Below are positions 14,688-62,566 of a stretch of 64,000 nucleotides of DNA, piece by piece. The translations under genes and the position numbers were made by a program. The stretch's first letter is position 1, and each line of letters starts with the position of its first letter. The stretch comes from a bacterium (GTDB lineage Bacteria > Patescibacteriota > Saccharimonadia > Saccharimonadales > AWTP1-31): contig JAUHZB010000001.1 in the NCBI GenBank assembly GCA_030426125.1, forward strand, positions 26,462-90,461, in the 5' to 3' direction. The notes beneath the pieces are model-generated. The model saw only the letters and a program-made list of their open reading frames with translations. It had not been told where the DNA came from and did not search any database.

Positions 14688-14689
14688 CT

Positions 14690-45089: not shown

Positions 45090-45182
45090 GGAGGGGTACC
45101 CAAGTGGCTTAAGGGGACGGTTTGCTAAATCGTTAGTGGGGCGCAAGCTCCAGCGAGGGTTCGAATCCCTCCTCCTCCGCCA
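45090..45182 (+). tRNA. tRNA-Ser (anticodon GCT), 93 nt, CCA encoded
   Basis: GGAGGGGTACCCAAGTGGCTTAAGGGGACGGTTTGCTAAATCGTT...GGTTCGAATCCCTCCTCCTCCGCCA; long variable arm. Confidence 0.85.
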
Positions 45183-45207
45183 GATTCAATCAAATTTCAC
45201 CTTATAC

Positions 45208-45297
<90 letters not shown>

Positions 45298-45347: not shown

Positions 45348-46076
45348 CTAAGCCCTAGCAAAAACCAGAGCGTCTACTCTTCTAGCTCCTGAATTCAATA
45401 GACAACTGGCAGCAGCTTCTAGCGAAGCGCCGGTGGTTAGCACATCATCCACTAGCAACACATCTTTATCTTTAACCTGAGCACCAAACTTTATCCGAAA
45501 AGCACCCTCCATTTGACTAAGTCGGTCAATCTTTTTAGAACCAACCTGCCTGGCTTGCCCTAGTCTGGTCAGAGCAGGGCGATAAGGAACACCCAAAGAA
45601 CTAGCTAATCTTCTTGCTATTAGTTGTGAGTGATCATAGCCTCGCTGACGCCTACGACTACTGGCCGTTGGCAAGGGTACTAATATTTGCTCTTGGTTAA
45701 CCGACTTTTGGTCGATAACCAACTCCAGCATACTATCAGCAATTATACTCGATGCAGCTTTGGCTCTTTCAAACTTCAATCTACGTACTAGTTCTTTAGC
45801 TATGCCTTGGTATTTAGTTCTAAGCCTTACAGAATTAAGTGAACTAATCGACTTGCAACTACTACAGGTAGTAAAATCGTCGGTCGTTCGAGCGCACAGA
45901 TAACAACAACTCGCTAGAGGGCTACCAAGTTTGGGCCAGCAACTGCGACATAGCAACTGACCCTCGTCACCACAGCTCAAACAACTATGGGGAGCAAATA
46001 AAGCTATAACAGATTCAATCATATTCATGTTGTACATATAGTGTTGTAAATAGTCCTTATGGGGTTGAAGCCTCAA
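45348..46076 (-). CDS. comF: ComF-family protein (Zn-ribbon plus phosphoribosyltransferase domain)
   Basis: N-terminal CLSCG...CRSCW, C-terminal PRTase motif VLLVDDVLTTGASL. Confidence 0.75.
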   Translation of the reverse strand: MRLQPHKDYLQHYMYNMNMIESVIALFAPHSCLSCGDEGQLLCRSCWPKLGSPLASCCYLCARTTDDFTTCSSCKSISSLNSVRLRTKYQGIAKELVRRLKFERAKAASSIIADSMLELVIDQKSVNQEQILVPLPTASSRRRQRGYDHSQLIARRLASSLGVPYRPALTRLGQARQVGSKKIDRLSQMEGAFRIKFGAQVKDKDVLLVDDVLTTGASLEAAASCLLNSGARRVDALVFARA

Positions 46077-46631: not shown

Positions 46632-46697
46632 TTTCCTATATAGGTACTGGCTAGATTTACTAACTGTATAGTTACAGTGTAGCGCTAACAAAAAAAA

Positions 46698-46722
46698 CAC
46701 CCTTCCGAAGAGGGGTGTTTTT
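46698..46722. terminator. bidirectional intrinsic terminator between convergent hsp20 and pilin-array genes
   Basis: A-run, CACCCTTC-cgaa-GAGGGGTG stem-loop, TTTTT. Confidence 0.7.
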
Positions 46723-46761: not shown

Positions 46762-47181
46762 TTATCCGCTTTGGCCAACAAATCGTTCTAGTACGAAACG
46801 TACAATGATCTGGGCAAGTGCTACTACTACAAGGCCAATTACAGCGTATAGAATAGTATTCTTGGCGGCTGTAATGTTAGAACTTTCACCTTGAGAGGTA
46901 ATGTATTTAACACCACCGACAATGATCATTACTACAGCGATGATACCAACTACTGCACTAAATAGGTTAAGGCCTAGGGTTACAGTTTCGTTTACTTGGG
47001 TTCCAGCTGATTCGTCAGTTACACAAGTTCCATCAGCGCCAAGTAATTCACCGTCTGTTCCAGAACAAACACTGTCTTGAAGCTCAAAAGCGGCATTTGC
47101 CACTGGAGCCATTGCAAATGGAGTAACTAGCGCTGCTGAAGCTAGAACTGTTATTAACATTTGTTTAATTGTTTTTATCAT
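46762..47181 (-). CDS. VirB2/TrbC-like T4SS pilin-family protein, paralog 1 (last in array)
   Basis: Signal peptide ...PVANA, Cys pair (CSGTDGELLGADGTC), two C-terminal hydrophobic helices with GGVKYITSQGES...AKNTILYAVIGLVVV motif. Confidence 0.55.
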   Translation of the reverse strand: MIKTIKQMLITVLASAALVTPFAMAPVANAAFELQDSVCSGTDGELLGADGTCVTDESAGTQVNETVTLGLNLFSAVVGIIAVVMIIVGGVKYITSQGESSNITAAKNTILYAVIGLVVVALAQIIVRFVLERFVGQSG

Positions 47182-47254
47182 TTTAAATTTTAACCTTTCT
47201 TTATTCTCTATTGTTTATACCATAACTTGCTTGGGCTTATCAAGTTGTTTGTCC

Positions 47255-47659
47255 TTATGTAAACTGCGTCAATACAAACCTAACAATAATCTGAGCTAGA
47301 GCAACTATTACAAGACCTATAAGGGCATACATCACACTATTTTTTGCTTCGTTTATTTTACCGCTCTCACCCTGTGATGTCATGTACTTTACCCCACCGA
47401 TCATAACCATAACTATGGCTATTATTCCAATAATAGCACTAAATAGATTTAGGCCAGTCTGGATAATACCGTCCACAGAAGTTGAGTCTGGATTTTCGCA
47501 ACCGTCTCCACTAGCCGAACTCACCCCAGCTCCTGCACAAACCGCTTTCTTGGCTGTTTCATCTGCAGCTGAGGCCATTGACGGAAAAAGAGATATTGCA
47601 AACATGCTACCGAAAAACATAATTAAGGCTATAGTGGTTAATTGAATTTTTCTTATCAT
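47255..47659 (-). CDS. VirB2/TrbC-like pilin-family protein, paralog 2
   Basis: Signal ...MASA, Cys pair, GGVKYMTSQGESGKINEAKNSVMYALIGLVIVALAQ motif. Confidence 0.55.
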   Translation of the reverse strand: MIRKIQLTTIALIMFFGSMFAISLFPSMASAADETAKKAVCAGAGVSSASGDGCENPDSTSVDGIIQTGLNLFSAIIGIIAIVMVMIGGVKYMTSQGESGKINEAKNSVMYALIGLVIVALAQIIVRFVLTQFT

Positions 47660-48066
47660 AATCTACTCTGTATAAAATACACTATTGTGCGAGCTAAAAC
47701 CAGTACCACAATACCTACTGCAGTATAAATCAAACCAGTCCTTGCTTTAGTAACTTTTGCGCTATCTCCTGACGACATAATTAGTTGTAGTCCATTGTAC
47801 ATAACCATGACAACAGCGATAATTCCACCGACTGCAGCAACTAGATTAGCGATAGTAGATATCAAATTATCTTCACCAGCTAATAGATCAGTGTCTGTTG
47901 GAGTCTGACATACGGCAGAATCGCTTGCAGATCCAGCAGAACCGTCACGACAACCAGGGAATGGATCAACAGCACTAACAGTATCCATATTCACCAATGA
48001 AAAAGTTAAGAATAAGAAACTTATTAGTGTGAATAGCTGTAGGAACAAAGGAATTTTTTTAATCAT
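47656..48066 (-). CDS. VirB2/TrbC-like pilin-family protein, paralog 3
   Basis: Signal ...VSA, Cys pair, NGLQLIMSSGDSAKVTKARTGLIYTAVGIVVL motif; 4-nt overlap with paralog 2. Confidence 0.5.
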   Translation of the reverse strand: MIKKIPLFLQLFTLISFLFLTFSLVNMDTVSAVDPFPGCRDGSAGSASDSAVCQTPTDTDLLAGEDNLISTIANLVAAVGGIIAVVMVMYNGLQLIMSSGDSAKVTKARTGLIYTAVGIVVLVLARTIVYFIQSRL

Positions 48067-48347
48067 ACACGATTCACCACAAAGTTAAGGATAGTAGAAG
48101 CCGATACTGCCACAGCTAAACCTAGAGCGGCATAAATTATAGACTTTCGTGCCTTGGATAAAGCTTGTGGGTCATCTTGGGCTAACATAAACTTAATGCC
48201 TGATATCATAATAACTATCAGGGAAACTCCACCTATAATTACAAATACTATGTACAAAATTGTCTGAAATGGATCACGTGTTGTTGTATCTATATTTGGC
48301 AGTGGGCTTGTATCCACAGCAAGCAGCCTGGCTAAACTACTAAACAT
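48063..48347 (-). CDS. VirB2/TrbC-like pilin-family protein, paralog 4 (short, 94 aa, no clear signal peptide)
   Basis: ISGIKFMLAQDDPQALSKARKSIIYAALGLAVAV motif; 4-nt overlap with paralog 3. Confidence 0.45.
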   Translation of the reverse strand: MFSSLARLLAVDTSPLPNIDTTTRDPFQTILYIVFVIIGGVSLIVIMISGIKFMLAQDDPQALSKARKSIIYAALGLAVAVSASTILNFVVNRV

Positions 48348-48349
48348 AA

Positions 48350-48739
48350 CTAAAACCTCCCTGCAACATAAACCACAATACCTGATGCCAGAGTCACAAT
48401 AACCACTCCAATTAGAGCATTCATTATAGTAGTCTTAGCATCTTTCACACCCTCAGGTTCACCCTGGCTGGTAATAAATTTAAAACCGCCATAAATGATA
48501 AAGCCAAAGGCCACTAGTCCACCGAATCGAAGCAATATATCGATAATTGCTAAGCCAATTTTTAACAGATCGGCTGGGTTTGAAGCAAAATCTATATCTA
48601 CCTTACAGCTTTCGGTGAAATCCAAATACTTATACCAAGTAGGGAAAATACCAAGGAATAATGAATTCTTGCCACATTCGGGACCTGCTGCGAAAAGAAC
48701 AGGAAGATAACTGTTTAAGCTTGCTATGGTAAGCCACAT
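48350..48739 (-). CDS. VirB2/TrbC-like pilin-family protein, paralog 5
   Basis: Cys pair (CGK...C), GGFKFITSQGEPEGVKDAKTTIMNALIGVVIVTLA motif. Confidence 0.5.
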   Translation of the reverse strand: MWLTIASLNSYLPVLFAAGPECGKNSLFLGIFPTWYKYLDFTESCKVDIDFASNPADLLKIGLAIIDILLRFGGLVAFGFIIYGGFKFITSQGEPEGVKDAKTTIMNALIGVVIVTLASGIVVYVAGRF

Positions 48740-48740
48740 T

Positions 48741-49139
48741 TTATATTACCCCTCCTGGCCACAACCATTGTAGTAACCCTAAGAAAAATATATAAGTAAC
48801 AAGCGCCAATATAGCATTATTTATTTTGCTTTTGGCAGCCGAGACTTTCTGAGGGTCACTACCAGCAGAAGTATACTGAATTCCAGCAATAATTATCATA
48901 GCGGTTACTACTATACCAATGGTGTAGGTCAAGAGCTTTATAGCCGGATCTATTAGTTTCTCGGTAATATCACAGTCTTCAGTGCTATCACACCGACTAA
49001 AGCTTGGTTCTTCGTCAGCAGCTAATACTGTCTGTGAAGGAACAACCGCAACACTTAGCAGAAAGCTTGAAAAAATAGCTAAAAATATTAGTTTTATGTT
49101 TATTAGATTAAATGTTGGTTTTTTGAGTATTGTAAACAT
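48741..49139 (-). CDS. VirB2/TrbC-like pilin-family protein, paralog 6 (first in array)
   Basis: Signal ...VLAA, Cys pair (CDSTEDC), AGIQYTSAGSDPQKVSAAKSKINNAILALV motif. Confidence 0.5.
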   Translation of the reverse strand: MFTILKKPTFNLINIKLIFLAIFSSFLLSVAVVPSQTVLAADEEPSFSRCDSTEDCDITEKLIDPAIKLLTYTIGIVVTAMIIIAGIQYTSAGSDPQKVSAAKSKINNAILALVTYIFFLGLLQWLWPGGVI

Positions 49140-49400
49140 TATGTTTTGGTTTCCTGAACTTAGCAGGTGATAGTAATTACAGGCAGTAATTATACTACTA
49201 ATTCAAATTATACATCAATAAACAATAATTACAGCCAGCAACCCTATATTGGACTTATTGTTTTTCATGGTTTTAGATATGAATCTAGATTTGCGATATT
49301 ACCCTATCAAGACTATAGTAAATGTAAGTCATGTTAAGACAAATTTTATACAGATATTTAAGTATTGAATCAAAACTTAGGTTACGGTGAAAACATTTAA

Positions 49401-52400
49401 ATGAAAAAAATCAATCTAAAATTAATCAACTGGGCATTACTTTTTGTGTTTGCAATACAAATAACACTGCCTGTTATTTTACCCCCAACCAAGGTTAGCG
49501 CAGCAGAAAGTGTCGAAAGCTTAAAATCTAAAGTTAAACACATACAGAAACTCCGAGGACTTCGAAAGTGCATTGACGATAAACTAGCCACTGGAGGTAT
49601 CGGATTAGAAAGTGGTCCATTTACCCTAAAATTTATTGCTGGTAGAGCAGTGAATGCGTACGATACCCCCGTTGGCCATGGTGTTGATACTGGTGATGGT
49701 AAGTGGGACTGCGCTAGCGCGAGTGGCGACAGGGAGAACACTTGGTTCAAATTAATCCTAAAAAATGGTAGCGATAGTGAATACTACTCAGGTTGGAGTA
49801 GTGGCGGCGATAATTCCTATAAATCCGTTGCAAGCAAGAACCTAGCCGAAGAAGGGGGATATCTATACTTTATTAATCGGGATAATTTAGCTTCCCACTC
49901 TGGAGGTGGAAAGCTAACCGAAGGCCCTGCTAAAGGGAAAGTCAAAGATCAGCTAGGTAGAACAATAGCCGTGCTAGAAAGAGACTTAACTCAAGATGAA
50001 AAAGATGCCATGGCTTACCTTAACCTTTCATGGACTTTTGCTGATTCAAATGCCTGCAAAGCTCAGGAAGTTGACGCCAATAGCGGTGGAAAGAAAGTTA
50101 AAATTGGCAACAAATTATTCAGAGTAGGAAATCCTGGTGGTAAAAATTCAGTTGGTTTTGGCTTTTATGGTGATAACGGTCAAGGTATTGGAGATGGTAA
50201 TTTAACCTGTGAGCAAATAGCAGACAGGATGGCTTCCTTGGCTTCATCATATGAAAAAGCCACCGGTGACACATCCACAATACCCGAAGGATCAAACCGC
50301 GCCGTAGAAGCAGATGGCGACACCGAAGGAGACATAGAAGCACAATGCGATATCACCCCGAATCCGATCACTTGGATAATGTGTGCCTTAATTACTGGTT
50401 TTATAGAGGCCATTAACGCTCTTGATGAAGGAGTTACAAACCTACTAAACATTCGCGCCGCTGAATTCTTCGGCGAAGGCCAAGTAGGCGACAGCTTCAA
50501 TAGCGTTTGGGTAAGTGTTCGGACCATAGCTCTAGGTTTCCTGATAATTGTCGCTCTAGTTATGATAATCAGTACAGCTATAGGTGTTGGCCCCTTTGAT
50601 GCCTATACCGTTAAAAAGGTGATGCCTAGATTAGTAGCAGTTATTATATTAATACCGCTATCTTGGTCTATTGTTTATTTCATGATTGACATGACTAGTG
50701 TTATTGGATTTGGTGTGAGAAATCTAATTCAGGCACCTTTCGCTGCAAATATTGAAGGTATTGGCTTCGGTAGTACTGTATCTACAACTGCTGCAACAGG
50801 ACTACTTGTTGGAGGTTTATTCCTTGGATTACCTGGCCTTCTAAGCTTCTTGGTAGGTGGTTTTTTAGCAGTGCTAATTGCATATGTAGTACTTGTTCTT
50901 CGGCAAATATTCATAATACTTCTTGCTGTATTAGCACCCGTCGCACTGGTTGCAGCCATTCTGCCAAATACACAAAAAGCTTGGAAATTTTGGTGGGAAT
51001 CTTTTTGGAAGGCGCTCATAGTATTCCCAATTATTGCGGCATTTATTGCTGCAGGCCGAATATTTGCCCAAGTCGCCGAAACAACACAAGGTGGAGGTGT
51101 AGGTGACCTTATCGCGTTCGTGGCCTACTTTGCTCCGTATTTCCTAATACCTCAGGCCTTCAAAATGGCAGGAGGTCTACTAGGCAACCTAACTGGTGCT
51201 GTTAATGATCGAGGTCGTGGAGCCTTCGATAGACTTCGGAAGTTCCGCCAAGGGCAAATGCAACAGAATATGCAAAAAATTGATGAGGGGTCGAGATTTA
51301 GCGACAGAACTAAACTTGGCAGTAAGGTTAACTCGGGACTCCGCAAAACCAGTAAATTAAATGAGGCTGGTTTTCGACCAAGTAAAATGCGATCAAACAT
51401 CAATTCTGCAATATCGGCACAAGACCTAAGATTAGCCGATGAAAAAGGCGAAAAAGACGATGCAGTCCGTGCAATAATTAATGATGATGATATGCTAGAT
51501 TCATTTAAATTTGATGATACAGATGATCAAATTCGACAAAGACTACTTGATAGTGGAAGATTCGGCGAGGCCGGATCTAAAGAACTCAATGCCGCAGTTG
51601 CAACAGTGCGACGAGCAAAACGTACGGCTAATAGTAGCGTAAGAAGTCAAATTGCTGCCGTTGGTTCAACCGCAACAGGTACGGGAATAAAAACACATGC
51701 TGATATGTATCAAGCTGCCATTGATGCCTCAGATGGTAATCCATCAACCAGGAACGCTGTATTTGCCAAAATGCGTGCTGCGGCTGAACGCGCCGGTAAC
51801 TACTCATTGTCTGGCCCAGGCCATGCAGAATCAGTAGATGCAATGGAAAGCATGGCGAGAGGAGAGTCGGCATCGAGTATTAATGCCCGAATGCTTGCAA
51901 GATCCATGGAGGTACAAGGGGCGGGTAAAATCCTACAAGGAAAACCTACGGATGTTGAAAACTTAACCGCACAACTAGCAACAGACTATCAGTCCGCTAT
52001 GGCTGATGGAGATCTCGATAAAGCAACCTCACTTGCCGCACAAATGAAATCATTGCGAGATGCAGATAACGGAGCATCGCCTGAAAATACTAAACATGTT
52101 AATGCTATGCTTGCAGCTTCAGAGATAGATGAGGGTATGGTCAACCCCGAAACAGGTGCACCTTTGTCGATCGACGAACAATTCGCAAGGAAAATATCCG
52201 GGCGAATGGGCTCTTCGCTAACAACCGAAGTGAAGGACAAGTATGCCACCGAGCTAGCTGCGGAACATCAACGTCGTGTTAATTCTGAAAACATAGTTCG
52301 AGCTAGAAGCGGACAACCACAACTCACTGGAGCTGAGAGTTTAGCAAAATTTGACAAACTCGTAGATGAGACAGCTCTAAACGTCATTAATCAAAGGATT

Positions 52401-52496
52401 CGTACTCGTGCTGGATCGTACGACGTTGGAGGTGGTAATAGGAACGTTCCAGAAGAACTCAGGAGACAACAAGCCTTAAGTCAAGACGATAATTAA
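49401..52496 (+). CDS. VirB6/TrbL-like polytopic T4SS membrane protein with large N-terminal exported and C-terminal soluble domains
   Basis: 1031 aa; signal peptide, then at least 6 consecutive TM helices (residues about 375-610), divergently transcribed from pilin array. Confidence 0.55.
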   Translation: MKKINLKLINWALLFVFAIQITLPVILPPTKVSAAESVESLKSKVKHIQKLRGLRKCIDDKLATGGIGLESGPFTLKFIAGRAVNAYDTPVGHGVDTGDGKWDCASASGDRENTWFKLILKNGSDSEYYSGWSSGGDNSYKSVASKNLAEEGGYLYFINRDNLASHSGGGKLTEGPAKGKVKDQLGRTIAVLERDLTQDEKDAMAYLNLSWTFADSNACKAQEVDANSGGKKVKIGNKLFRVGNPGGKNSVGFGFYGDNGQGIGDGNLTCEQIADRMASLASSYEKATGDTSTIPEGSNRAVEADGDTEGDIEAQCDITPNPITWIMCALITGFIEAINALDEGVTNLLNIRAAEFFGEGQVGDSFNSVWVSVRTIALGFLIIVALVMIISTAIGVGPFDAYTVKKVMPRLVAVIILIPLSWSIVYFMIDMTSVIGFGVRNLIQAPFAANIEGIGFGSTVSTTAATGLLVGGLFLGLPGLLSFLVGGFLAVLIAYVVLVLRQIFIILLAVLAPVALVAAILPNTQKAWKFWWESFWKALIVFPIIAAFIAAGRIFAQVAETTQGGGVGDLIAFVAYFAPYFLIPQAFKMAGGLLGNLTGAVNDRGRGAFDRLRKFRQGQMQQNMQKIDEGSRFSDRTKLGSKVNSGLRKTSKLNEAGFRPSKMRSNINSAISAQDLRLADEKGEKDDAVRAIINDDDMLDSFKFDDTDDQIRQRLLDSGRFGEAGSKELNAAVATVRRAKRTANSSVRSQIAAVGSTATGTGIKTHADMYQAAIDASDGNPSTRNAVFAKMRAAAERAGNYSLSGPGHAESVDAMESMARGESASSINARMLARSMEVQGAGKILQGKPTDVENLTAQLATDYQSAMADGDLDKATSLAAQMKSLRDADNGASPENTKHVNAMLAASEIDEGMVNPETGAPLSIDEQFARKISGRMGSSLTTEVKDKYATELAAEHQRRVNSENIVRARSGQPQLTGAESLAKFDKLVDETALNVINQRIRTRAGSYDVGGGNRNVPEELRRQQALSQDDN

Positions 52497-52521: not shown

Positions 52522-53670
52522 GTGATAATATATAAAATAGACATGAAAACAAAAAACCACCCTCCTACAAACACAATCAACTCTAGCCCTGAAACACAAC
52601 CGCAACCTATAGAGATCCAAGAAGAAGAAGTTGCCTATAGTGGCTTGCGTCGTGAACTTTTTCAACGTGTCTCGGATGCAGCCTCAAACAGCATAGAAAA
52701 AACCTCGCAAACAGACCATGTAATCAGGACTGCTCCAAGTGGTGCAGAAAGAACCAGAGGCTTCTATAGCGCTCCTGAGCCTAACGACGTTAAGCCGGTC
52801 GGAATTTTCGAAAAAGCAGCAAGCCATATCAGACAAAGACAAGCTGCAAAAAAGCGTCGCCTAGAGTATGAACGTCGGCGGCTGCACAGTAGTCACGGAG
52901 GAGTCCCAGAGGACACAATAGACTACTCTAATCCAGAAAAACCCAAAAACCCAGTTTTTACGCTGGAAAGAGAATTCTCTCCAACAGCCCCAAGCGTCAA
53001 AAAAAGTGTTGAAAAATTAGAAAAAAACAGAGAAGATCAAGGGGTACCTAAAGCCAGCAAACTAGGTGTAAAGCCGATGAATGACTATGGTGAAGTCTAC
53101 AAAAAAAGAAGATCTTGGAGAGAGCGTAGAATAGAAAAAACCCAAACCAGAAAAGATCGGCGATTAAAAAAAGCTATTGATAGGCTAGACAGAAAACTCG
53201 AACGGGGCGAAGACGGTAAGACCTTGCATGGTAAATATCGAGATAAAAAAATTCATTTACTTGAATCTCTTAAACAATATTCCGATAAAAGAGTCGCTCA
53301 TGAAGACAGTAAACTTGTTAAAGTTGCACGGCAGAAAAACAAGCAAGAGTTAGCTAAATTTCTTGCAACGCACCCACCACTAGCTATGATGAGTCGAGCT
53401 GAAGCACAACAGCTGTCCGATTTACAGCGAGCAGGCGAAGCTCGTGTACTAGAAGCTGAAATGGAACTATGGATGAGGAGGTCGGGCGCAATTTCTGAAA
53501 ATGAGCGTAGGAAGTTAATTAGACAGCGTCGAGAAGCATCCTTTAGGGGAGATCAGCATAATCGACGATTGATGAAAACCGCAGCAGGCAGGCAACAACT
53601 AAAGCGACAATTCAATATAGACAATGGTGTATACGGAAGATTGCCCGAAGAAGACCAAAGTAGGAAATAA
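52522..53670 (+). CDS. hypothetical highly basic K/R/E-rich coiled-coil protein within T4SS locus
   Basis: 382 aa, runs of KKRR / RRRL, no TM; possibly nucleic-acid binding (inference only). Confidence 0.4.
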   Translation: MIIYKIDMKTKNHPPTNTINSSPETQPQPIEIQEEEVAYSGLRRELFQRVSDAASNSIEKTSQTDHVIRTAPSGAERTRGFYSAPEPNDVKPVGIFEKAASHIRQRQAAKKRRLEYERRRLHSSHGGVPEDTIDYSNPEKPKNPVFTLEREFSPTAPSVKKSVEKLEKNREDQGVPKASKLGVKPMNDYGEVYKKRRSWRERRIEKTQTRKDRRLKKAIDRLDRKLERGEDGKTLHGKYRDKKIHLLESLKQYSDKRVAHEDSKLVKVARQKNKQELAKFLATHPPLAMMSRAEAQQLSDLQRAGEARVLEAEMELWMRRSGAISENERRKLIRQRREASFRGDQHNRRLMKTAAGRQQLKRQFNIDNGVYGRLPEEDQSRK

Positions 53671-53717: not shown

Positions 53718-54782
53718 ATGGCAACCTACAAAGTACTCCAGGATATAGAAGCTGAAGACACCTTTCTAGGTCCTCTCACTCTAAAACAGTTCATCTTCGG
53801 GGCTGTGGCTATTGTTAGCTCATATGTTGCATTTTTGTTAATGACCAAAGGTCTATGGGTGTTAGCTATCCCACTACTGCCGGTAATCTTTGTGCTTGGC
53901 TTTCTAGCTTTCCCGTGGGGAAGAGATCAACCAACCGAAACATGGTTGCTAGCAAAAATTCGCTTTATGTTTAAACCCAGAATTCGTATCTGGAATCAGA
54001 CTGGTATTCAAGAACTAGTAAAGATTACGGCGCCACCACCAAAACTAGAATATACCGGAGATAACCTATCACAAACTGAGGTAAAAAGTCGCCTTAAAGC
54101 CTTGGCAGAAACCATCGACAGTCGTGGCTGGGTGGTTAAAAACGTCTCCGCTCAACAATACGCCAGCCCTAGCTACGGTCTGCTCTCTAAAAAGAATCAA
54201 TCTGATAGATTGGTTGAAGTATCTACTTTACCAAAAACCGAATCTCCAATAAATGACAATGGTATCGAAGACATGTTTGATAGCAGTAGGGCCGATCAAC
54301 TAACTAGTCAAATAGATCAAAGAAATCAAGATCACCGCAAGGAAACTGTCAGTCAGCTAAAAAGTGCCGCCAAAAAAGACAGCCAACCAGCCCCAGATCT
54401 ATGGTTCATGAATGAAGGTCCAGCCCCCAGCAAACCCGGCATGGCTAGCTTTGGAACCTCTACTGTCGCTCCTGGACAAAGTAGCTCTTCACTACCTAAT
54501 AGTTTTAGGTCAAAAAAACAGACTAAAGATCCAGACGAAAAAGCCATCTCTGAAAAACTAAAAGCTAAAAAAGATAAACCCGGGCAAGCATTCAGGAATC
54601 ACAAAACCATAGTTCCAGCCGACCAACAAAAACCATTAACACAACCGATGACAAGCGTGCCTGACCCTGTTACAATTGAACTAGCCAGAAACAACGATCG
54701 CAACATCGACAGTTTAGCTAGGGAGAGTACTAGAGCCCATAAACCACCTGAAGATGATGAAGTAGTTGTATCTCTGCATTAG
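53718..54782 (+). CDS. PrgI/VirB3-like two-TM T4SS protein with long S/P/K-rich C-terminal extension
   Basis: N-terminus DTFLGPLTLKQFIFGAVAIVSSYVAF (cf. PrgI-family F-GLT-RQ motif) followed by second TM; located immediately upstream of VirB4. Confidence 0.5.
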   Translation: MATYKVLQDIEAEDTFLGPLTLKQFIFGAVAIVSSYVAFLLMTKGLWVLAIPLLPVIFVLGFLAFPWGRDQPTETWLLAKIRFMFKPRIRIWNQTGIQELVKITAPPPKLEYTGDNLSQTEVKSRLKALAETIDSRGWVVKNVSAQQYASPSYGLLSKKNQSDRLVEVSTLPKTESPINDNGIEDMFDSSRADQLTSQIDQRNQDHRKETVSQLKSAAKKDSQPAPDLWFMNEGPAPSKPGMASFGTSTVAPGQSSSSLPNSFRSKKQTKDPDEKAISEKLKAKKDKPGQAFRNHKTIVPADQQKPLTQPMTSVPDPVTIELARNNDRNIDSLARESTRAHKPPEDDEVVVSLH

Positions 54783-54805: not shown

Positions 54806-55822
54806 ATGAATCCAACGCAGAACCAACCAGCTTCGGCTATGCCGCCTCAAGGACCTGGCGCTAACCCCTACGCAAATAATGCTCTACCAAACACCGCACC
54901 TCCAGCCGGAGGTATCCCAAACAACCAAGGTGTATCTTCTCAGGCTAATCCAATGCCTGGATCAGTTCCTTATACTGCCGCCTCCTTGCCGGGCAATAGT
55001 TTTAACCCACAATACAATCAGGCTCAACAACAGAACCAACAACCAAGTCAGCAACCTGGCGTTTCCCAGCCAAAAACAGTAGCTCCAAAATCTAACCCCA
55101 ACAGTACTCAAAACACTTTAAACATTGCCGAAATACGCGATGGTATCGTAATAATGAACGATGGTAGTTTTCGTTCTGTAGTGATGGTTAAGTCGGTAAA
55201 CTTCGATCTAATGAGCCCTCAGGAGCAGGAAGCTGTAGAGTATAGCTACCAAGGTTTTCTAAACTCGCTATATTTTCCAATTCAAATAAATATGCGTTCT
55301 CAAAAAGTTGATCTATCTCCGTATATCGAAAAATTAGACAAGATCAGAACCGAGCACGACAATATGCTTTTAGCTCTGCTAATGGAAGATTACATTAACT
55401 TCATGGGAGACCTCAGTCAGCAAACCAACATTATGGATAAAAAGTTCTACGTTGTTATACCCTACTTCCCAACCGTGGACATCCAAAATGCTCTTAGTAA
55501 CAGCAAGGGTCTAGTTAAGGGTCTCGGGGCACTATTTAGCAAAAGTCCTCAAACCCAAGTTACTATCAACGAAGTTGATCTAAACAAAGCTAAGGACGAA
55601 CTCAGAAACCGCGTACAAGCAGTCCTAGGTGGACTAATGCAATGTGGGGTACAAGGCTTACCGCTAGACACTCAAGAACTTATTGAGCTCTACTATGACA
55701 GCTACAACCCTGACACCGCCACCCGCCAGCAGCTAAAGAACTTCGACAACCTCACTGCACCTGTAATAACCAAGGGTCAAGGTCAAGCCCATAATCCAAA
55801 CCTAGACAGGGAGATGAACTAA
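54806..55822 (+). CDS. VirB4-like ATPase, N-terminal segment (Q/N/P-rich extension plus VirB4 N-domain), separate ORF
   Basis: Residues about 110-338: LNIAEIRDGIVIMNDGSFRSVVMVKSVNFDLMSPQEQEAV resembles the N-terminus of Gram-positive VirB4/TraE proteins; stops in TAATG overlapping next ORF. Confidence 0.5.
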   Translation: MNPTQNQPASAMPPQGPGANPYANNALPNTAPPAGGIPNNQGVSSQANPMPGSVPYTAASLPGNSFNPQYNQAQQQNQQPSQQPGVSQPKTVAPKSNPNSTQNTLNIAEIRDGIVIMNDGSFRSVVMVKSVNFDLMSPQEQEAVEYSYQGFLNSLYFPIQINMRSQKVDLSPYIEKLDKIRTEHDNMLLALLMEDYINFMGDLSQQTNIMDKKFYVVIPYFPTVDIQNALSNSKGLVKGLGALFSKSPQTQVTINEVDLNKAKDELRNRVQAVLGGLMQCGVQGLPLDTQELIELYYDSYNPDTATRQQLKNFDNLTAPVITKGQGQAHNPNLDREMN

Positions 55823-57738
55823 TGCTCGGTAAAAAGAAAAAAGTAGAGAATGATCCAGTAGCTCTTGCCCAACAACAAAGAGCCCGCGAGGAACAAGAAG
55901 TAAACGCTGCCTTTAATAAAGGTGTCACTGCTCTTCGTGACTTTATTGCTCCAAGCTCCATCGAATACCAAAACAACTTCTTCCACCTAGGAACTAGGAT
56001 TGCCAGAACCTTCTATGTTTTTGGTTATCCTCGGCAAATCTTCACCGGCTGGCTTAGTAGTATGATTAACCTCGATGAAGTCCTGGATCTATCTATCTAC
56101 ATCTACCCTGTAGAGAGTCAGGTGGTGCTAGAAAATCTTCGGAAGAAGGTAACCCAACTTGAAGCTGGACTTCAGATTGATGCTGAAAAGGGAAGAACCA
56201 GAGATCCAGGTAAGCAAGCAGCAATTCAAGATGCCGAAGAAATGCGCGACAAACTACAAGTGGGTGAAGAGAGATTCTTTAGATTTGGCCTATACTTTAC
56301 AATTTATGCTTCCAGTATGGATGAAATGGAGTTCGTAACCCATAAGATTGAATCAATACTCGGTCAGCAGCTAGTCTACTCCAAGGTAGCCACCTCTCAG
56401 CAAGAACAAGGTTTTAACAGCACCGTCCCCCAATTCACCGACCAGCTTCAAATCAGGCGCAACATGAACACCGGTGCTATTAGTACTAGCTTCCCATTTA
56501 CCAGCGCTGATCTTAGTCAAGACAACGGTATTTTATACGGCATCAACATGCACAACTCTGGTCTGGTAATATTCGATCGGTTTACCCTAGAAAACAGCAA
56601 CTCAGTGGTCTTCGCTAAGTCTGGTGCTGGTAAGTCATTTGCTGTAAAACTAGAAGCTCTTCGAAGCCTAATGTTTGGCACCGAGATTTTCATAATTGAC
56701 CCCGAAAACGAATACCAGAGAATGGCTGAAGCGGTTGGGGGAGCCTACGTTAGACTTAGTCTTAGTTCGGCCACTCGAATTAATCCATTTGACCTGCCAA
56801 AAGTAGTAGACACCGAAGAAGCTGACAATGCTCTCAGAAGCAACATAATTACCCTTCACGGTCTCTTGCGACTGATGATGGGTGGTGCCCAGGCTCAGAT
56901 GGCTGGCAGTGGAACAGCTGCCATGCCAGCCCTAAATCCAGTAGAAGAATCCGATCTTGATGCAGCCTTAATTGAAACTTACGCTAAAGCTGGAATCACC
57001 AACGATCCACTAACCCATAACTCCCAACCACCGACCATAATGGACCTATACGACACCTTACTTCATATGGGTGGTACCGGACCACAATTGGCTCAACGAA
57101 TCAGAAAATATACCACCGGTACCTTTGCTGGGATTTTCAGCCAACAATCCAATACAAACATAAACAACCCGCTAGTGGTCTTTAATATTCGTGACCTAGA
57201 AGATGAGCTCCGACCAGTAGCTATGTATATAGTCCTAAACTACATCTGGAACAAAACTAAAAGTGACCAGAAAAGACGCATGCTTGTCATTGACGAGGCC
57301 TGGCAGTTAATGAAATACGAAGATTCAGCCAACTTTATGTTTAGCCTTGCTAAACGAGCTAGGAAATATAACCTAGGCATCACCACCATCAGCCAAGACG
57401 TTGAAGACTTCATGGGTAGCCGAATGGGAAGGGCGATTGTAGCTAACGCTAGTATGCAACTACTACTAAAACAATCTTCTTCAGCTGTCGACGTATTAGC
57501 CGATGTCTTCAAGCTTACTAGTGAAGAAAAGAAAAGACTTAGCCAATTCCCAGTCGGTCAAGGTTTGTTCTTCGCTGGCCAAAGCCACGTGCATGTTCAA
57601 ATCCAAGCTAGCCCTACTGAGATGAATCTAATAACCACTAATCCTGACCAGATGCAAGAAATTAGTCAAAGTGGAGACCTAGACAAACCACAAGGCACTA
57701 TTGATTTACAAAACCGCTTAACACCAGGATCAGGATAA
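55822..57738 (+). CDS. virB4: VirB4/TraE/CagE-family T4SS ATPase, C-terminal segment
   Basis: Walker A AKSGAGKS, Walker B/DEAW (RMLVIDEAWQLM), upstream ...IEYQNNFFHLGTRIARTFYVFGYP conserved VirB4 region. Confidence 0.8.
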   Translation: MLGKKKKVENDPVALAQQQRAREEQEVNAAFNKGVTALRDFIAPSSIEYQNNFFHLGTRIARTFYVFGYPRQIFTGWLSSMINLDEVLDLSIYIYPVESQVVLENLRKKVTQLEAGLQIDAEKGRTRDPGKQAAIQDAEEMRDKLQVGEERFFRFGLYFTIYASSMDEMEFVTHKIESILGQQLVYSKVATSQQEQGFNSTVPQFTDQLQIRRNMNTGAISTSFPFTSADLSQDNGILYGINMHNSGLVIFDRFTLENSNSVVFAKSGAGKSFAVKLEALRSLMFGTEIFIIDPENEYQRMAEAVGGAYVRLSLSSATRINPFDLPKVVDTEEADNALRSNIITLHGLLRLMMGGAQAQMAGSGTAAMPALNPVEESDLDAALIETYAKAGITNDPLTHNSQPPTIMDLYDTLLHMGGTGPQLAQRIRKYTTGTFAGIFSQQSNTNINNPLVVFNIRDLEDELRPVAMYIVLNYIWNKTKSDQKRRMLVIDEAWQLMKYEDSANFMFSLAKRARKYNLGITTISQDVEDFMGSRMGRAIVANASMQLLLKQSSSAVDVLADVFKLTSEEKKRLSQFPVGQGLFFAGQSHVHVQIQASPTEMNLITTNPDQMQEISQSGDLDKPQGTIDLQNRLTPGSG

Positions 57739-57754: not shown

Positions 57755-60736
57755 GTGAGTACAGACCTAAAAGACAAGCCTTCCGGCATATACGATGACG
57801 AACAAAATAGCCACATAGATCGCATCCGTGATCTAGAAGCTCAAGAGGCAGCTGAAGCTCAAGAAGGCACCCATCAAACCAACGAAGATGGAAGCCCGCT
57901 AAGCGGATCCGCGATTAAAGCTAGTGAGTCAAAAAAACCAGCTTCCGGCAAAGATACTACAGATAAATCCTCAACTCCAAAATCCGGGGGATTATACAAC
58001 CCGGATGGAGACAAAAGCACTTCTAGATTCGGAAAACTAAAGTCCAAGTTGGGCAATATTGAAAACAAACGAAGAAAACTACTAGTTGTTGGTGGTAGTA
58101 TTGGTGGAGTCACCGCATTTATGCTAATACTGATATTACTAGCATCATTGAAGCTACCTCACTTCGGCCAAGTTTTAACAGCCACTGGCTACGCCAGATT
58201 AAATGGAATCATGCGTGAGCGAATGGCCCAAAACCTATTCGATAACGCTGCCACTACCGGTGATGGCCAGATATCTCTGCGTGCTAGAACGATGCGCGAA
58301 AGAATAACCGGCCAAAATTTAAACAAACAGATAACTAAACTAGGTCAGGAAAATAGGCTTATATTTGAATTGGACGGAGAAAATGTAACCGGCATCAAGC
58401 TTCCACAAGAAGGTAAAACCATATCTCTTGATACAGTTTCACAGGAACTATTCGATAAAGATTATTCGGAGATAAAAAGAATCCGAGGAGTTAGAGAGCG
58501 TATGACAGTTCGAGCAGAATACGTTAAGCAAGTAAAAGCTGGTGTGAGCGAAGGACTAGCGACTGAAACCCGGGCAGTGAGAGGAAGAGCTACCGCAACT
58601 GCTCTAAAAAACAGCGGATTTAAATATAATCGCTGGGCCAACAAAGCAAGGGAGTATTTAGGTAAAACACCGAAAGAAGCAGCTATAAAAAATACCGTTG
58701 AGACCATTGAACAGGTTGGAGGTGATAAGTTTGTTGAAACGGGAATAAAACAATATGACGATTTATCCGAAGAGCTCAAAAAAAATGGCAGTCGAATCGA
58801 GAAGTTTATGGAAAAAAACGGTGGGGTATTCGATAAAGAAGCCTATGTAAAGCAAGTGAGCACTGACTTCACCACTGGTCAAAAAATTACGGAAGCAGCC
58901 AATAAAGTGGGTGTTGGCCTGATGATAGGAACACTAGCTTGTATGGCTAACCAAGCATTTTCTAATGTAGATGAAATAGCCGAAAATAACGAACTGGCGG
59001 CCTCAAGAGCTGCTGCCGCATTACCAGCGGCTCAAGATCAGCAAATACGCGGTGAGGCTAACGATGAGGCGATTGGCGCAGAAGCAAACACCCTAACAGG
59101 TGCTGAAAATTCACAGTACTACCAATACGCAACCGGGCAAGAAATTACCGCAGAAGAGGTTGAGGTACCCAATACTAAACCAAAATACGGTAATATGGCA
59201 GATATTATCTCTCTTGCTACCAGTCCAACAACTTTTATACCTGGAGGCTTTGCCATACCAGAGCCAGCTAAAGACGCCATTAACAATGGTTTTTGTTCTG
59301 CCCTACTAGACCCCAAGGGTGCTGTCGTTGCTGCAGCTGCCGAAATAGTAGTAACTGCAGCTGCCTCGGTATTTACCGGAGGTGGTGCAGCTGTTGCCAG
59401 GGAAACCGGTGGTAGAGGCGCACTACTAGTAATATCTAGAGAGTTAGCTAGCGCAACACTAGCGACCGGAAGAGGTGTTGTTAGTAAGAAAAGCGCCGCA
59501 ACACTCCTAGGCTTTGCCGCCTTCCAGCAGGGACTAGAAATGGTCACCAGGCAGTTAGCTGGAGTTGAATTCATGGGGGGTGAAACCGGTCCACAAAAAT
59601 TCGAGATAGCAGCAGTTGGTAATAATGTACTACAATCAAAGAGAATGCGTGGGATAGGTGGTGCTCCACTAACCAATGAAGAGGCTAAGCAAGTAGACCA
59701 ACCACTCATAAAACAAAAAACTGCTGAATACCAAAACCAGAATGTTTTTGCTAGATATCTATCAATTGAAAATCCATATTCATTAATTGGAAAACTAAGC
59801 GCTATTGTACCTGGGGATATTGTTAGCCTAAAACAATCTAGCTTAACTATGGTTAATAGCTTCGCTTCAGTATTTAATATAAAAAATATACTTAATCCTG
59901 TAATGTCAATTGCGGGCCTAAACACCAAAGCTCAGGCAGTGGATAACTACAACCCGTATTATGACGTCACTCAATGGGGCTTCTCGCCATCCGAACTAAA
60001 GAAAATGCGCGAAGACCCCACCTACAACTACTACACCAATCTTGATTACATTAGCGAAGAAACTATAGCCGAATACGACGAAAAATATGGTGATTGCTTT
60101 GACACATCTAAGACCAATTATGAAGTCGAGAAAATGTCAAAATGCAGCAAAGATGAGCTAAGGGGAAACGATCAAATCTTCCGCTATAGGTTAACTTTAT
60201 TAGATGAAGAAACCGTATCGATGCTAGAACAAAAACCAGAAGATATAGGAAAAGACCCTGTAGATGATGGTGGTCAAAACATTAACTCAACTGGAAAAAT
60301 TGCGCCAAGTGGTGGAAGTGGATCTGTAGGTATTGAACAAACCTCACCAATCCCCGGAACCAACAAACGCATCCACACAGACGTTCTTCCTCAATTCCTA
60401 GACATGATTGATGCTGCCCGAGCAGATGGCATAGACCTAATGCCTATTAGTTCAGCTTGGAGAGATCCACAGAAACAAATAGAACTAAGGAAGAGTAACT
60501 GCCCAGATTGGCGTAATTCACCATCCGGGGATTGCAATCCACCAACAGCCAGACCCGGAACCTCAAAACATGAAAGTGGTAGGGCGGTAGATTTTAGCAA
60601 TATGTGCTTCTCTAGAAACGGATCAAGCTCATGTAAGGGAAATCCTAGGTGGGAATGGCTCAAAGCAAACGCCGCAACCTACGGATTCTACCCGTTAAAA
60701 AGTGAGGCCTGGCACTGGTCAACCACAGGTACCTAA
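57755..60736 (+). CDS. large N-terminally anchored protein with C-terminal M15 (LAS/VanY-like) zinc D-Ala-D-Ala carboxypeptidase domain
   Basis: Single TM near residue 120; C-terminal SKHESGRAVDF (H-x6-D zinc site) and EAWHWS motifs typical of peptidase M15/VanY. Confidence 0.6.
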   Translation: MSTDLKDKPSGIYDDEQNSHIDRIRDLEAQEAAEAQEGTHQTNEDGSPLSGSAIKASESKKPASGKDTTDKSSTPKSGGLYNPDGDKSTSRFGKLKSKLGNIENKRRKLLVVGGSIGGVTAFMLILILLASLKLPHFGQVLTATGYARLNGIMRERMAQNLFDNAATTGDGQISLRARTMRERITGQNLNKQITKLGQENRLIFELDGENVTGIKLPQEGKTISLDTVSQELFDKDYSEIKRIRGVRERMTVRAEYVKQVKAGVSEGLATETRAVRGRATATALKNSGFKYNRWANKAREYLGKTPKEAAIKNTVETIEQVGGDKFVETGIKQYDDLSEELKKNGSRIEKFMEKNGGVFDKEAYVKQVSTDFTTGQKITEAANKVGVGLMIGTLACMANQAFSNVDEIAENNELAASRAAAALPAAQDQQIRGEANDEAIGAEANTLTGAENSQYYQYATGQEITAEEVEVPNTKPKYGNMADIISLATSPTTFIPGGFAIPEPAKDAINNGFCSALLDPKGAVVAAAAEIVVTAAASVFTGGGAAVARETGGRGALLVISRELASATLATGRGVVSKKSAATLLGFAAFQQGLEMVTRQLAGVEFMGGETGPQKFEIAAVGNNVLQSKRMRGIGGAPLTNEEAKQVDQPLIKQKTAEYQNQNVFARYLSIENPYSLIGKLSAIVPGDIVSLKQSSLTMVNSFASVFNIKNILNPVMSIAGLNTKAQAVDNYNPYYDVTQWGFSPSELKKMREDPTYNYYTNLDYISEETIAEYDEKYGDCFDTSKTNYEVEKMSKCSKDELRGNDQIFRYRLTLLDEETVSMLEQKPEDIGKDPVDDGGQNINSTGKIAPSGGSGSVGIEQTSPIPGTNKRIHTDVLPQFLDMIDAARADGIDLMPISSAWRDPQKQIELRKSNCPDWRNSPSGDCNPPTARPGTSKHESGRAVDFSNMCFSRNGSSSCKGNPRWEWLKANAATYGFYPLKSEAWHWSTTGT

Positions 60737-60739
60737 ACT

Positions 60740-62566
60740 ATGAAAAATATTCCGCTACTTAAACCATTATTAAACTACACACTAGGATTTCTAATAATTC
60801 TAATTCTAGTATTTATTAATGTAGCTAACGCCTACGCAGTAAGCGTGGAAGAAATATTTACGCCATATTATAATCCAAACTTAAATAACTGCCAGCCCAC
60901 TAGTACTGGATTCACTAAAGTGCCTGACGGTGGAAAACTTTACGTGCTAGGTGATTCAATCACGGTTGGAATCGAAGACACCCTCAGGAATAAACTGCAA
61001 GAAAAAGACATAACCCCCTACATAAATGCATCTGTATCTAGGTCATGGAACGGAGCTGGAAATAGCGTTGTATCAACTCAAGGAACACCACTTCCCGGCA
61101 AAGACGCCATTAAAGAAGATGAAGCAAAGCAGGCTGGAGTTGTGTCGGGGGCTAGCGGTATAGTTATCGCCCTTGGCACTAACGGTGGCGCCTCCAGCAA
61201 CCCAATAGAAAGCGCTATTGATGAAATTAGAAGAATAAACTCCAGCGCTCCTATATGGTGGGTAAATACCGTTGGATCTTCAGCTTGGCCAAACAATATC
61301 AGTAACCTCGGATCATTCAATGAACAGCTAGTCGATCTATCCGCTACAAAAAACTTTCAAATTATTAATTGGTTTTCCGCGGTCAATCCAACCGGAGACC
61401 CCACAACAACCCCCACCAACGACCCAACACGCCTGCTAAGTGACGGCATCCATCCTAACGCTGCTGGTATTCAGAAGCTATCTACTAAAATTGTTACAGA
61501 TATTAGTGGTGGCGACTCCAGTGGCTCAACCACCGCTAGTGAAACCGGGGTTGCATGTTGCTCTGGGGCAGGAACTACAGTAGCCGGGAACAACAACGAA
61601 GAAAAAGTATGGAATTATCTTGTTGGTAACCTACAGCTTAGCGCTATTCAAGCTGCTGGAATTATGGGTAATATTCAACAGGAATCGGGATTCAGCACCA
61701 CAATAGTTAACAAAAGCAGTGGTGCTTATGGACTAATTCAGTGGCTTGGCGGTAGAAAAACCGCCCTGCAAAATTTTGCCAGGGGGCAGGGAAAGGATAT
61801 GGGTGACATATCGGTACAATTAGAATTCATGAAACAAGAGCTGGAATCTGACTACTATAGACGTCGAGTATTCGACCCAATAAAAGCCTCGCAGTCCCTA
61901 GAGGAAAGCACTAGAATATGGCTGGAAAAATTCGAAATTCCTTGTACACCAGGGTCGGCTGCTTGCGCGGAGGAAATGAATGTACGTTTACCGTTCGCTC
62001 AAAACTGGCTAACTAGGTTTGGTTCAAACACTGCCACCGCAGTAGGCAACTCACCCTCATCAACTTGCGCATCGCAAGAAGGTGGCACAGGGGTTAGCGC
62101 CGATGGTTTCGTCTTCCCGCTCAGGACTAATCAGCAAACTATTAAATCTAAGGGTTGGTGCTTCGAAAGTCAATCTAACTGCCACCATGACTACAACGCA
62201 GCAGATATTTTTGCCCCAACCGGAACCGAGGTTATTGCAGCTAGAGGTGGGCAAGTTATCCTTGTTAAATCAGGCCCAACTCGAATAGCTATCAAGGCGG
62301 ATGATGGCAATATATACTACTACACACATATGGGCGCTGGTACCGCAGTCGTCAGTAAAGGACAAACCGTTGCAGCGGGTGCTACCCTCGGTAGGGTAGG
62401 CACAAAAGCCGATGCCGCCGGAACACCCGAACACCTACATATTGATATATTGCCAGGTGATAGATATGACAATAGGCCAGGATGTGCTGGATCAGCTTGC
62501 AGTAGTTTACCCTTCATTAATATCCAACCACCACTCACCGAAGCATTTAAGAATCTACCGGAGTAA
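60740..62566 (+). CDS. tri-domain cell-wall hydrolase: SGNH/GDSL esterase, lysozyme-like (phage-tail-lysozyme/SLT-type) and M23 (LytM) peptidase
   Basis: LYVLGDSITVG (GDS block I) and ALGTNG; AIQAAGIMGNIQQESGF...GAYGLIQW (catalytic Glu region of CwlT/phage tail lysozyme-type muramidases); C-terminal HMGAG...TPEHLHIDI (M23 HxxxD ... HxH). Confidence 0.65.
   Translation: MKNIPLLKPLLNYTLGFLIILILVFINVANAYAVSVEEIFTPYYNPNLNNCQPTSTGFTKVPDGGKLYVLGDSITVGIEDTLRNKLQEKDITPYINASVSRSWNGAGNSVVSTQGTPLPGKDAIKEDEAKQAGVVSGASGIVIALGTNGGASSNPIESAIDEIRRINSSAPIWWVNTVGSSAWPNNISNLGSFNEQLVDLSATKNFQIINWFSAVNPTGDPTTTPTNDPTRLLSDGIHPNAAGIQKLSTKIVTDISGGDSSGSTTASETGVACCSGAGTTVAGNNNEEKVWNYLVGNLQLSAIQAAGIMGNIQQESGFSTTIVNKSSGAYGLIQWLGGRKTALQNFARGQGKDMGDISVQLEFMKQELESDYYRRRVFDPIKASQSLEESTRIWLEKFEIPCTPGSAACAEEMNVRLPFAQNWLTRFGSNTATAVGNSPSSTCASQEGGTGVSADGFVFPLRTNQQTIKSKGWCFESQSNCHHDYNAADIFAPTGTEVIAARGGQVILVKSGPTRIAIKADDGNIYYYTHMGAGTAVVSKGQTVAAGATLGRVGTKADAAGTPEHLHIDILPGDRYDNRPGCAGSACSSLPFINIQPPLTEAFKNLPE

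Follow-up and report, generated by a model that had tools for sequence, protein, structure and literature searches.

At the locus studied here, six consecutive small open reading frames (ORFs) lie on the minus strand (49139..46762) of a 64,000-nucleotide stretch of contig JAUHZB010000001.1 (assembly GCA_030426125.1, contig positions 26,462 to 90,461); this whole stretch is called the window, and all positions refer to it. The six genes are paralogous and very probably encode pilin subunits of a type IV secretion system (T4SS). We named them A to F in the order of transcription. They are transcribed divergently, head-to-head, from a plus-strand operon for a monoderm-type T4SS (Table 1). The source organism is a Saccharimonadales bacterium, and its VirB4 protein presents 81-88% identity to proteins of 80 retrieved genomes, nearly all labelled Saccharibacteria or Saccharimonadales (590 relatives were found). 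Members of the Saccharibacteria are ultrasmall and use other bacterial cells as hosts.

A preliminary description of this DNA, made from the letters alone, had reported six consecutive minus-strand ORFs of 94-139 amino acids (aa), and we recovered all of them at the same positions. It had also described them as translationally coupled throughout. This holds for four of the five junctions, those from A to E, with distances of +1, +2, -4 (ATGA), and -4 (ATGA) nt; E and F are separated by a 73-nt spacer. The start of B lies 1 nt past the stop of A, and its GGAGG Shine-Dalgarno sequence is inside the 3' end of A. Public gene calls on two identical Logan contigs (ERR3420974 and SRR33155350) gave the same six genes, each tagged PF18895. 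Their only difference is that F starts at Met8 (132 aa instead of 139). We favour the 139-aa form because the N-terminus M-I-K-K-I-K is conserved in orthologs and a Shine-Dalgarno sequence, AAGAAAGG, lies 12 nt upstream of the first ATG. Neither the array nor its surroundings contained DNA repeats of more than 20 nt, inverted ones included, which argues against a recent duplication.

Table 1. Features of the pilin array, its flanks, and the adjacent T4SS operon (positions in the window).
Feature	Position	Strand	Description
Pilin paralog A, first gene	49139..48741	-	132 aa; leader, two Cys, two-helix hairpin, C-terminal W-x-x-P-G-G; PF18895 33.9 bits
Pilin paralog B	48739..48350	-	129 aa; atypical, weakly hydrophobic leader, F-P-T-W-Y-K-Y-L, two Cys, hairpin with GGFKFITSQGEP; PF18895 36.2 bits
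Pilin paralog C	48347..48063	-	94 aa; no signal peptide, no Cys, short N-tail then hairpin; PF18895 48.2 bits
Pilin paralog D	48066..47656	-	136 aa; leader, two Cys, degenerate loop motif; PF18895 47.9 bits
Pilin paralog E	47659..47255	-	134 aa; leader end SMASA, then AD; two Cys, GGVKYMTSQGES; PF18895 56.7 bits
Pilin paralog F, last gene	47181..46762	-	139 aa; leader end VANA, then AF; two Cys, GGVKYITSQGES; PF18895 52.5 bits
Inferred internal promoter and ribosome-binding site of F	47243..47194	-	within the 73-nt E-F spacer; phylogenetic footprint
Putative F -35 box	47243-47238	-	TTGATA, then an 18-nt spacer ending TGG
Putative F -10 box	47219-47214	-	TATAAA, with TGG directly before
F Shine-Dalgarno sequence	47201-47194	-	AAGAAAGG
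Intrinsic terminator after F	46690..46722	-	GC-rich hairpin then U8; between convergent F and hsp20
Divergent intergenic region	49140..49400	.	261 bp, AT-rich, between A and the VirB6-like gene
Candidate A-E promoter	49218..49189	-	TTGATG-N18-TATAAT; consensus match only, 10/12
Polytopic membrane protein, VirB6-like	49401..52496	+	1031 aa; Foldseek, suggestive
K/R-rich ORF	52522..53670	+	382 aa; no ortholog in relatives
PrgI family (VirB3-like) membrane protein	53718..54782	+	354 aa; PF12666 PrgI, E 2.2e-11, 44.5 bits vs 27
Conserved protein	54806..55822	+	338 aa; median 73% identity to orthologs in related loci
VirB4-type T4SS ATPase	55822..57738	+	638 aa; PF19044 TraG P-loop 91.9 bits, AAA_10, DUF87
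VanY-domain protein	57755..60736	+	993 aa; C-terminal VanY D,D-carboxypeptidase domain
Cell-wall hydrolase, PrgK/VirB1-like	60740..62566	+	608 aa; GDSL lipase, Phage_lysozyme2, and M23 (Pfam); hhalign to pCF10 PrgK

All six proteins scored above the curated gathering threshold of the T4SS pilin family PF18895 (33.9-56.7 bits vs 26.6; E 3e-8 to 2.5e-15), which bears out the T4SS-pilin assignment of the preliminary description. Among NCBIfam models, the best for all six was NF045849 –the Mbov_0395 pilin-like conjugal transfer protein–, aligned over the whole hairpin at 26-40 bits. Against its cut-off of 40 bits, E reached 40.2, C 38.4, and the other four 26-32. F has 3167 homologs at E<=1e-5, and the PF18895 tag was present on all 120 among the matches listed; some F homologs are named 'pilin' by NCBI and some carry a precomputed PF04956 (TrbC/VirB2) tag. 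As a separate observation, the Joint Genome Institute (JGI) labels some F homologs wrongly with the name of cytochrome bd subunit II.

Each product is a small membrane protein. Most paralogs start with a cleavable leader; next comes a variable N-terminal ectodomain, usually with two Cys, and then a conserved hairpin of helix, short polar loop, and helix. All 15 pairs matched each other in BLASTP at 26-48% identity, E and F being the closest (48%). As first noted in the preliminary description, five of the six paralogs (A, B, D, E, and F) carry two Cys, and these lie ahead of the first hairpin helix; C has none. Two C-terminal hydrophobic segments were found in all six (Kyte-Doolittle means 1.6-3.0), and the proteins end 5-12 residues past helix 2. 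With the hydropathy threshold used, an N-terminal leader preceded the two helices in A, D, E, and F, and only the two helices were detected in B and C. The signal peptide of B is uncertain, as its leader, MWLTIASLNSYLPVLFAAG, lacks a basic n-region and is not hydrophobic enough for the threshold. A leader is therefore seen in A, D, E, and F, is atypical in B, and is absent from C; the preliminary description had likewise noted one member, its paralog 4, without a signal peptide. The proposed shared motif fared in a similar way: G-G-x-K-[YF]-[IM]-T-S-Q-G-E-[SP] was present in its strict form in B, E, and F only, with degenerate versions in A, C, and D. The conserved loop is K-Y-I-T-S-x-G-[DE]-x, and the alignment of the six contains four invariant columns (M1, G75, G86, and A102). 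An AlphaFold2 model of F predicted a helix-turn-helix hairpin (helices 58-95 and 100-136, with a 4-residue turn) whose predicted local distance difference test (pLDDT) score was above 90. The mean for the whole model, built from a 63-sequence alignment, was 76, and the ectodomain was of low confidence.

For the comparison among species, ORFs were called in 80 related loci, and a profile built from the six proteins of the window was used to pick out the pilins. The comparison set comprised 36 loci that had enough upstream sequence and exactly six same-strand pilin genes with the same size pattern; median lengths from A to F were 190, 133, 99, 130, 134, and 141 aa. The gene order A-B-C-D-E-F was constant in these 36 loci, and synteny with the T4SS operon was kept in at least 36 related genomes. 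The nearest BLAST neighbour of 208 of the 216 proteins occupied the same array position in a different genome; for two proteins it was a paralog of their own genome. Thus, the six are distinct, ancient orthologous groups in a fixed order. The groups also keep their own traits: C was leaderless, with two hydrophobic segments only, in 36/36 loci, and F had two Cys in 35/36. The F-P-T-W-Y-K-Y-L motif marks group B in the relatives, and W-x-x-P-G-G is found at the C-terminus of group A, whose ectodomain is the most variable (129-301 aa, 2-11 Cys).

The pilins of the remaining loci were sorted by hidden Markov models of each group. Every complete array read A-B-C-D-E-F, and the larger ones read ABCDEFF (three loci) or ABCDEFFFF (one locus). 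The extra copies were always F-type and at the distal array end, and A to E were single-copy (L044:602-4950, L009:1470-4489, L051:1369-4581, and L077:430-3632; 7-9 pilin genes). Strings shorter than six were mostly explained by locus ends or by longest-ORF calling. Between species, the pilins are ~35-50% identical, whereas VirB4 is 81-88% identical. Conservation is highest in group F and in its hairpin, which presented 74-87% identity to the window protein, vs 45% for the leader and 38% for the ectodomain.

The gap between E and F is also a property of the family. Its median was 73 nt (range 36-122) in the 36 loci, vs medians of -4 to +5.5 nt at the other four junctions. When the spacers of the relatives were aligned by eye, they displayed the pattern TTGA-N~17-TGnTATAA, with AAGAAAGG ~20 nt further on and the ATG ~10 nt after that. 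T[GA]nTATAA was found in 32/36 spacers (background frequency in these loci, 0.011 per 80 nt); the strict combination of -35 and extended -10, TTGN-N15-18-TGnTATAA, in 27/36; and RAAGG in 35/36. In arrays with extra F genes, the element precedes the first F-type gene after E. On the basis of this conserved extended -10 and Shine-Dalgarno sequence, F is probably transcribed from its own promoter, which we predict from the phylogenetic footprint. A generic consensus scan missed it because the scan needs a T at position 6 of the -10 box and that of F ends in A.

The terminator hairpin after F had a folding energy of -24.3 kcal/mol (z = -3.2), and 0/200 shuffles were as stable; the same palindrome was found on the plus strand. 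At the other end of the array, the generic promoter scan of the divergent region gave 13 sites vs 10.4±3.4 in shuffles, that is, no enrichment. We also considered a replication origin in this region and rejected it: DnaA-box-like matches in the window were not above chance and none was located there.

The flanking operon encodes a monoderm-type T4SS, and virB4 lies 6.7 kb from the pilin array. The 1031-aa protein beside the array had no Pfam match with our local library. The AlphaFold2 model of its central helical region (residues 300-660) had a pLDDT of 71.5, and seven of the nine top Foldseek hits in the PDB were R388 TrwJ/VirB5-TrwI/VirB6 stalk chains (E 0.03-0.36, prob 0.77-1.0), which we took as the VirB6 subunit from their chain length. 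This model suggests, without reaching significance, that the protein is VirB6-like and the presumed platform for pilin assembly. A precomputed PF19590 tag on its homologs was not reproduced with the local Pfam library and we did not rely on it. When ortholog alignments of six flanking T4SS-operon proteins were compared by hhalign to ten Prg/Pcf proteins of pCF10, the hydrolase was related to PrgK (probability 97.6%, E 3e-12) and was the only such case; the PrgI-like protein reached a probability of just 5.8% with PrgI. Neither a type IV coupling protein (T4CP, VirD4) nor a relaxase was found among ~50 window ORFs scanned with Pfam. In the same scan, no Peptidase_S26 or TraF-like peptidase or cyclase appeared, although the preliminary description had pointed to one as a possible neighbour. 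A tblastn search of paralog C and the 1031-aa protein against 72,556 plasmids (PLSDB) gave no match, so the system has no close plasmid relatives there.

Other genes of this operon deserve a mention in their own right. The 382-aa ORF (52522-53670), between the VirB6-like and PrgI-like genes, is very K/R/E-rich (22% K+R), and none of the 80 related loci yielded an ortholog (E<1e-10). About half of the relatives have nothing in this slot, and the others have unrelated ORFs (240-770 aa) that are often just as basic; judging from these sequences, it is a hypervariable position in an otherwise conserved operon. The 338-aa protein (54806-55822) abuts virB4 upstream, has a Q/N/P-rich N-terminus, a very conserved C-terminal domain (80/80 loci), and no Pfam match. 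It may be the TrsD-like component named in PMC12102498, for which it is a candidate. At the operon end, the products of 57755-60736 and 60740-62566 are two large wall-active proteins that diverge fast (~28-31% identity to relatives).

The feature itself is already known, as this array is another species' copy of the published six-pilin T4SS array of Saccharibacteria. McLean 2018 described four to six small signal-peptide proteins related to VirB2, beside VirB4 and VirB6, across Saccharibacteria (bioRxiv 10.1101/258137), and a transcriptome paper on TM7x treated them as six 'effector' genes conserved throughout Saccharibacteria. Wang 2023 found the pilin series essential in Southlakia epibionticum, whose T4SS lacks a recognisable T4CP or relaxase (PMC10633639). 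Using PF18895 and PF04956, Quiñonero-Coronel 2025 retrieved 441 arrays of 2-11 pilin genes from 383 assemblies. Saccharimonadia are particularly rich in such arrays, whose genes share 25% identity on average and 54% at most; versatility in antigenicity or host range was proposed there, with the virB2 paralogs of Bartonella and Anaplasma as an analogy (PMC12102498). The array is also covered in a 2025 FEMS review (PMC12857230). Arrays are recognised in PMC12102498 by at least two tandem PF18895/PF04956 genes near virB4, low mutual identity, and a Patescibacteria host, and all of these are found at our locus.

Compared by published description, the known arrays (SEML1_0006-0019 of ML1, the 'Sec-secreted array' of Nanosynbacter lyticus TM7x, and the 441 arrays) share with ours the phylum, PF18895, the six genes, and a setting by genes for VirB4, VirB6, and PrgI with no T4CP or relaxase nearby. 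The low within-array identity is also alike. Four points that we did not see in those papers refine the published picture: the positional orthology, the leaderless C, the amplification of F only, and the F promoter footprint.

Beyond the phylum, likeness to Gram-negative VirB2/TrbC pilins (Agrobacterium VirB2, RP4 TrbC, R388 TrwL, and F TraA) lies in the small size, the leader, the two helices with a short polar or charged loop, and the encoding together with VirB4 and VirB6. These systems have one major pilin and a VirB5 tip protein, whereas here there are six specialised paralogs with a Cys-pair ectodomain in a monoderm envelope. Moreover, cyclic P-type pilins (RP4 TrbC and Ti VirB2) use a TraF-like S26 peptidase, and we found none among the ~50 window ORFs scanned. 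The monoderm system of pCF10 is closer in setting: it is an MPF-FATA T4SS with genes for PrgI, VirB4, and a PrgK-type hydrolase, and its PrgF forms a two-helix hairpin with a charged loop and is proposed to polymerise on a VirB6 pentamer. According to the same work, a monoderm T4SS can use VirB2-like proteins for a pilus-like conduit on VirB6 (bioRxiv 10.64898/2025.12.18.695078). However, PrgF is a single 75-aa protein without leader or ectodomain, and the plasmid pCF10 is conjugative, carrying both a T4CP and a relaxase. PrgF did not match PF18895, its best match being a weak one to Maff2, and the hhalign comparison of the F-family profile with PrgF was marginal (probability 52%, E 1.5e-4, 32 columns covering helix 1 and the loop start).

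The Mbov_0395/MMCAP2_0565 protein (NF045849) of the Mycoplasma integrative and conjugative element (ICE) resembles our proteins over the whole hairpin, is the best NCBIfam match, and comes from a wall-less or monoderm host; however, a mobile element carries it as one gene, vs a chromosomal six-gene set here, and E is the only paralog that reaches the model cut-off. Finally, Bartonella and Anaplasma also carry several divergent virB2 genes in tandem and are host-associated. Their copies are thought to be interchangeable for immune evasion, whereas those described here are ancient positional orthologs, coupled from A to E, and qualitatively different from each other.

Taken as a whole, it is highly likely that the six genes are the VirB2-like (PF18895) subunit set of a chromosomal, monoderm-type (MPF-FATA-like) Saccharibacteria T4SS. 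Several results weigh against this interpretation or against the subunit roles proposed below. In the TrbC/VirB2 family PF04956, to which the preliminary description had also related the proteins, all six gave coherent matches over the hairpin but stayed below the gathering threshold (15.0-25.9 bits vs 27.9; E 1.1e-5 to 0.029; best score for C, 25.9 bits), which is consistent with distant relatedness and not with membership of that model. The F-family profile matched no solved pilin among all PDB sequences, and gave a spurious match to cytochrome bd subunit II only (E 0.08). Foldseek on the F hairpin had a best E of 0.9, with an archaeal conjugation pilin first at rank 29. Since Foldseek and PDB sequence searches cannot tell a simple hairpin from unrelated ones, membership of the VirB2 fold is compatible with these results and not proven by them. 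The VirB6 assignment, with its non-significant Foldseek E-values and no hhalign match to PrgH, is suggestive. In per-locus best hits, orthology was clear-cut for A, B, C, and F, and blurred among D, E, and F. In the literature searched, we found no observation of a pilus made of these proteins in any Patescibacterium. Lastly, the evidence for a division into major and minor subunits consists of promoter-like sequence conservation and gene order.

If the subunit set is accepted, the hairpins could still remain embedded in the cytoplasmic membrane, or build no more than a very short collar on VirB6, and act as channel parts with no extended pilus. Only a two-transmembrane hairpin has actually been shown, no filament has been assigned to this T4SS, monoderm-type systems were long thought to be pilus-free, and the closest NCBIfam model is a 'pilin-like' membrane protein of a Mycoplasma ICE. 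We nevertheless consider this explanation unlikely: the family is related to VirB2/TrbC, polyethylene glycol (PEG) labelling in the 2025 preprint indicates that pCF10 PrgF exits the membrane and lines the lumen, and six specialised paralogs with variable ectodomains, predicted to form disulfide loops, plus a subunit that looks abundant and separately promoted, are in better agreement with an exposed polymer.

The preliminary description had offered antigenic or functional variation, or a heteropolymeric pilus, as the meaning of the array. The first of these takes the six genes as interchangeable versions of one pilin, with different subunits used for each host, an idea also voiced in PMC12102498. 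The paralogs are indeed very divergent, the F ectodomain evolves much faster than its hairpin, the pilins diverge between species far more than VirB4, and the copy number of F varies. However, each position is a separate orthologous group whose order is kept in 36 species, and the groups differ in kind, with a leaderless C and signature motifs of their own in A and B. A to E are translationally coupled, so they are co-expressed, and we found no repeats, invertible segments, or silent cassettes. Moreover, the reported essentiality of the pilin series in S. epibionticum (PMC10633639) is unexpected for redundant copies. Thus, interchangeable variants seem improbable to us, and phase or antigenic switching was rejected given the lack of repeats of more than 20 nt, inverted ones included, in and around the array. 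As six positional orthologs follow the same order across species, fixed functional specialisation or a heteromer, two of the readings offered earlier, is favoured over antigenic switching.

Least credible of all are Sec-secreted soluble T4SS effectors, an interpretation first given to the small signal-peptide proteins of the TM7x array; leaders in four or five of the six and the 'six putative effector genes' of bioRxiv 10.1101/2022.03.25.485537 speak for it, but all six proteins end in two strongly hydrophobic helices and match the pilin family, C is leaderless, later papers reassigned the array to pilins (PMC10633639, PMC12102498), and we ruled it out on the C-terminal transmembrane hairpin and the pilin-family match.

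Returning to the VirB2-like subunit set, a working model can be drawn by analogy with VirB2 and PrgF. The hairpins would be inserted in the cytoplasmic membrane with the loop toward the cytoplasm, and VirB4 would extract them and stack them on the pentameric VirB6-like platform encoded next door. The product would be a pilus-like tube, or a short conduit through the cell wall, at the interface between epibiont and host; the loop would line its lumen, and the variable N-terminal Cys-loop ectodomains would be displayed outside. From the gene organisation, a single transcript with tight coupling may yield A to E in constant proportions, as specialised, non-redundant, low-copy subunits. They could act as an initiation, tip, or adaptor complex, in which the leaderless C is a possible base adaptor and A, with its variable ectodomain, a possible host-binding tip. 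F would then be the bulk subunit of the tube: it is the candidate major subunit owing to its conserved putative promoter, strong Shine-Dalgarno sequence, terminator, and copy-number variation, seen in no other paralog. This heteromeric VirB2-type structure, with A to E as minor and F as major subunits in a logic like that of type IV pili, is a tentative proposal that we regard as possible though short of probable. As for its use, host interaction or transport is a more probable function of the machine than conjugation, as proposed for Southlakia, given that no T4CP or relaxase was found in the window ORFs scanned.

Elsewhere, the window encodes housekeeping functions (ValRS, ArgRS, GroEL, a Mur ligase, TsaD, DHFR, and tRNAs), with a few observations unrelated to the array. 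A 483-aa ORF at 33123-34574 (-) matches the Pup-ligase family PF03136 (PafA/Dop-like; E 8e-27) in this Saccharibacteria genome. At 13408-15214 (+), a CDP-alcohol phosphatidyltransferase, a PHP-domain protein, and a protein of the CarS-like CDP-archaeol synthase family (PF01864, E 1.8e-28) are adjacent; the last is an archaeal-type lipid enzyme family, here in a bacterial genome. Immediately downstream of hsp20, the gene convergent with F, lies a gene for a ComFC-like protein (45348-46076 (-)) with a double zinc ribbon and a phosphoribosyltransferase, beside a cluster of two tRNA-Ser and one tRNA-Arg (45090-45297 (+) and 44210-44286 (-)). Two Ham1/ITPase-family paralogs are located within 4 kb of one another (37705-38271 (+) and 41938-42498 (-)), with a short Fic/DOC-family ORF nearby (43334-43720 (+)).

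Epibiotic growth of the one Saccharibacterium that is amenable to genetics requires the T4SS together with its pilin series, and the cargo of this T4SS, together with whether a monoderm cell builds a pilus, are pressing biological questions (PMC10633639, PMC12857230). Our cross-species data sharpen the hypotheses on both the array and its subunits, pointing to a fixed, specialised set in which F is the sole amplified gene and looks to be separately, and probably more strongly, expressed. A T4SS pilus assembled from six distinct VirB2 paralogs that replace VirB5 would, if true, be a structure not previously described.

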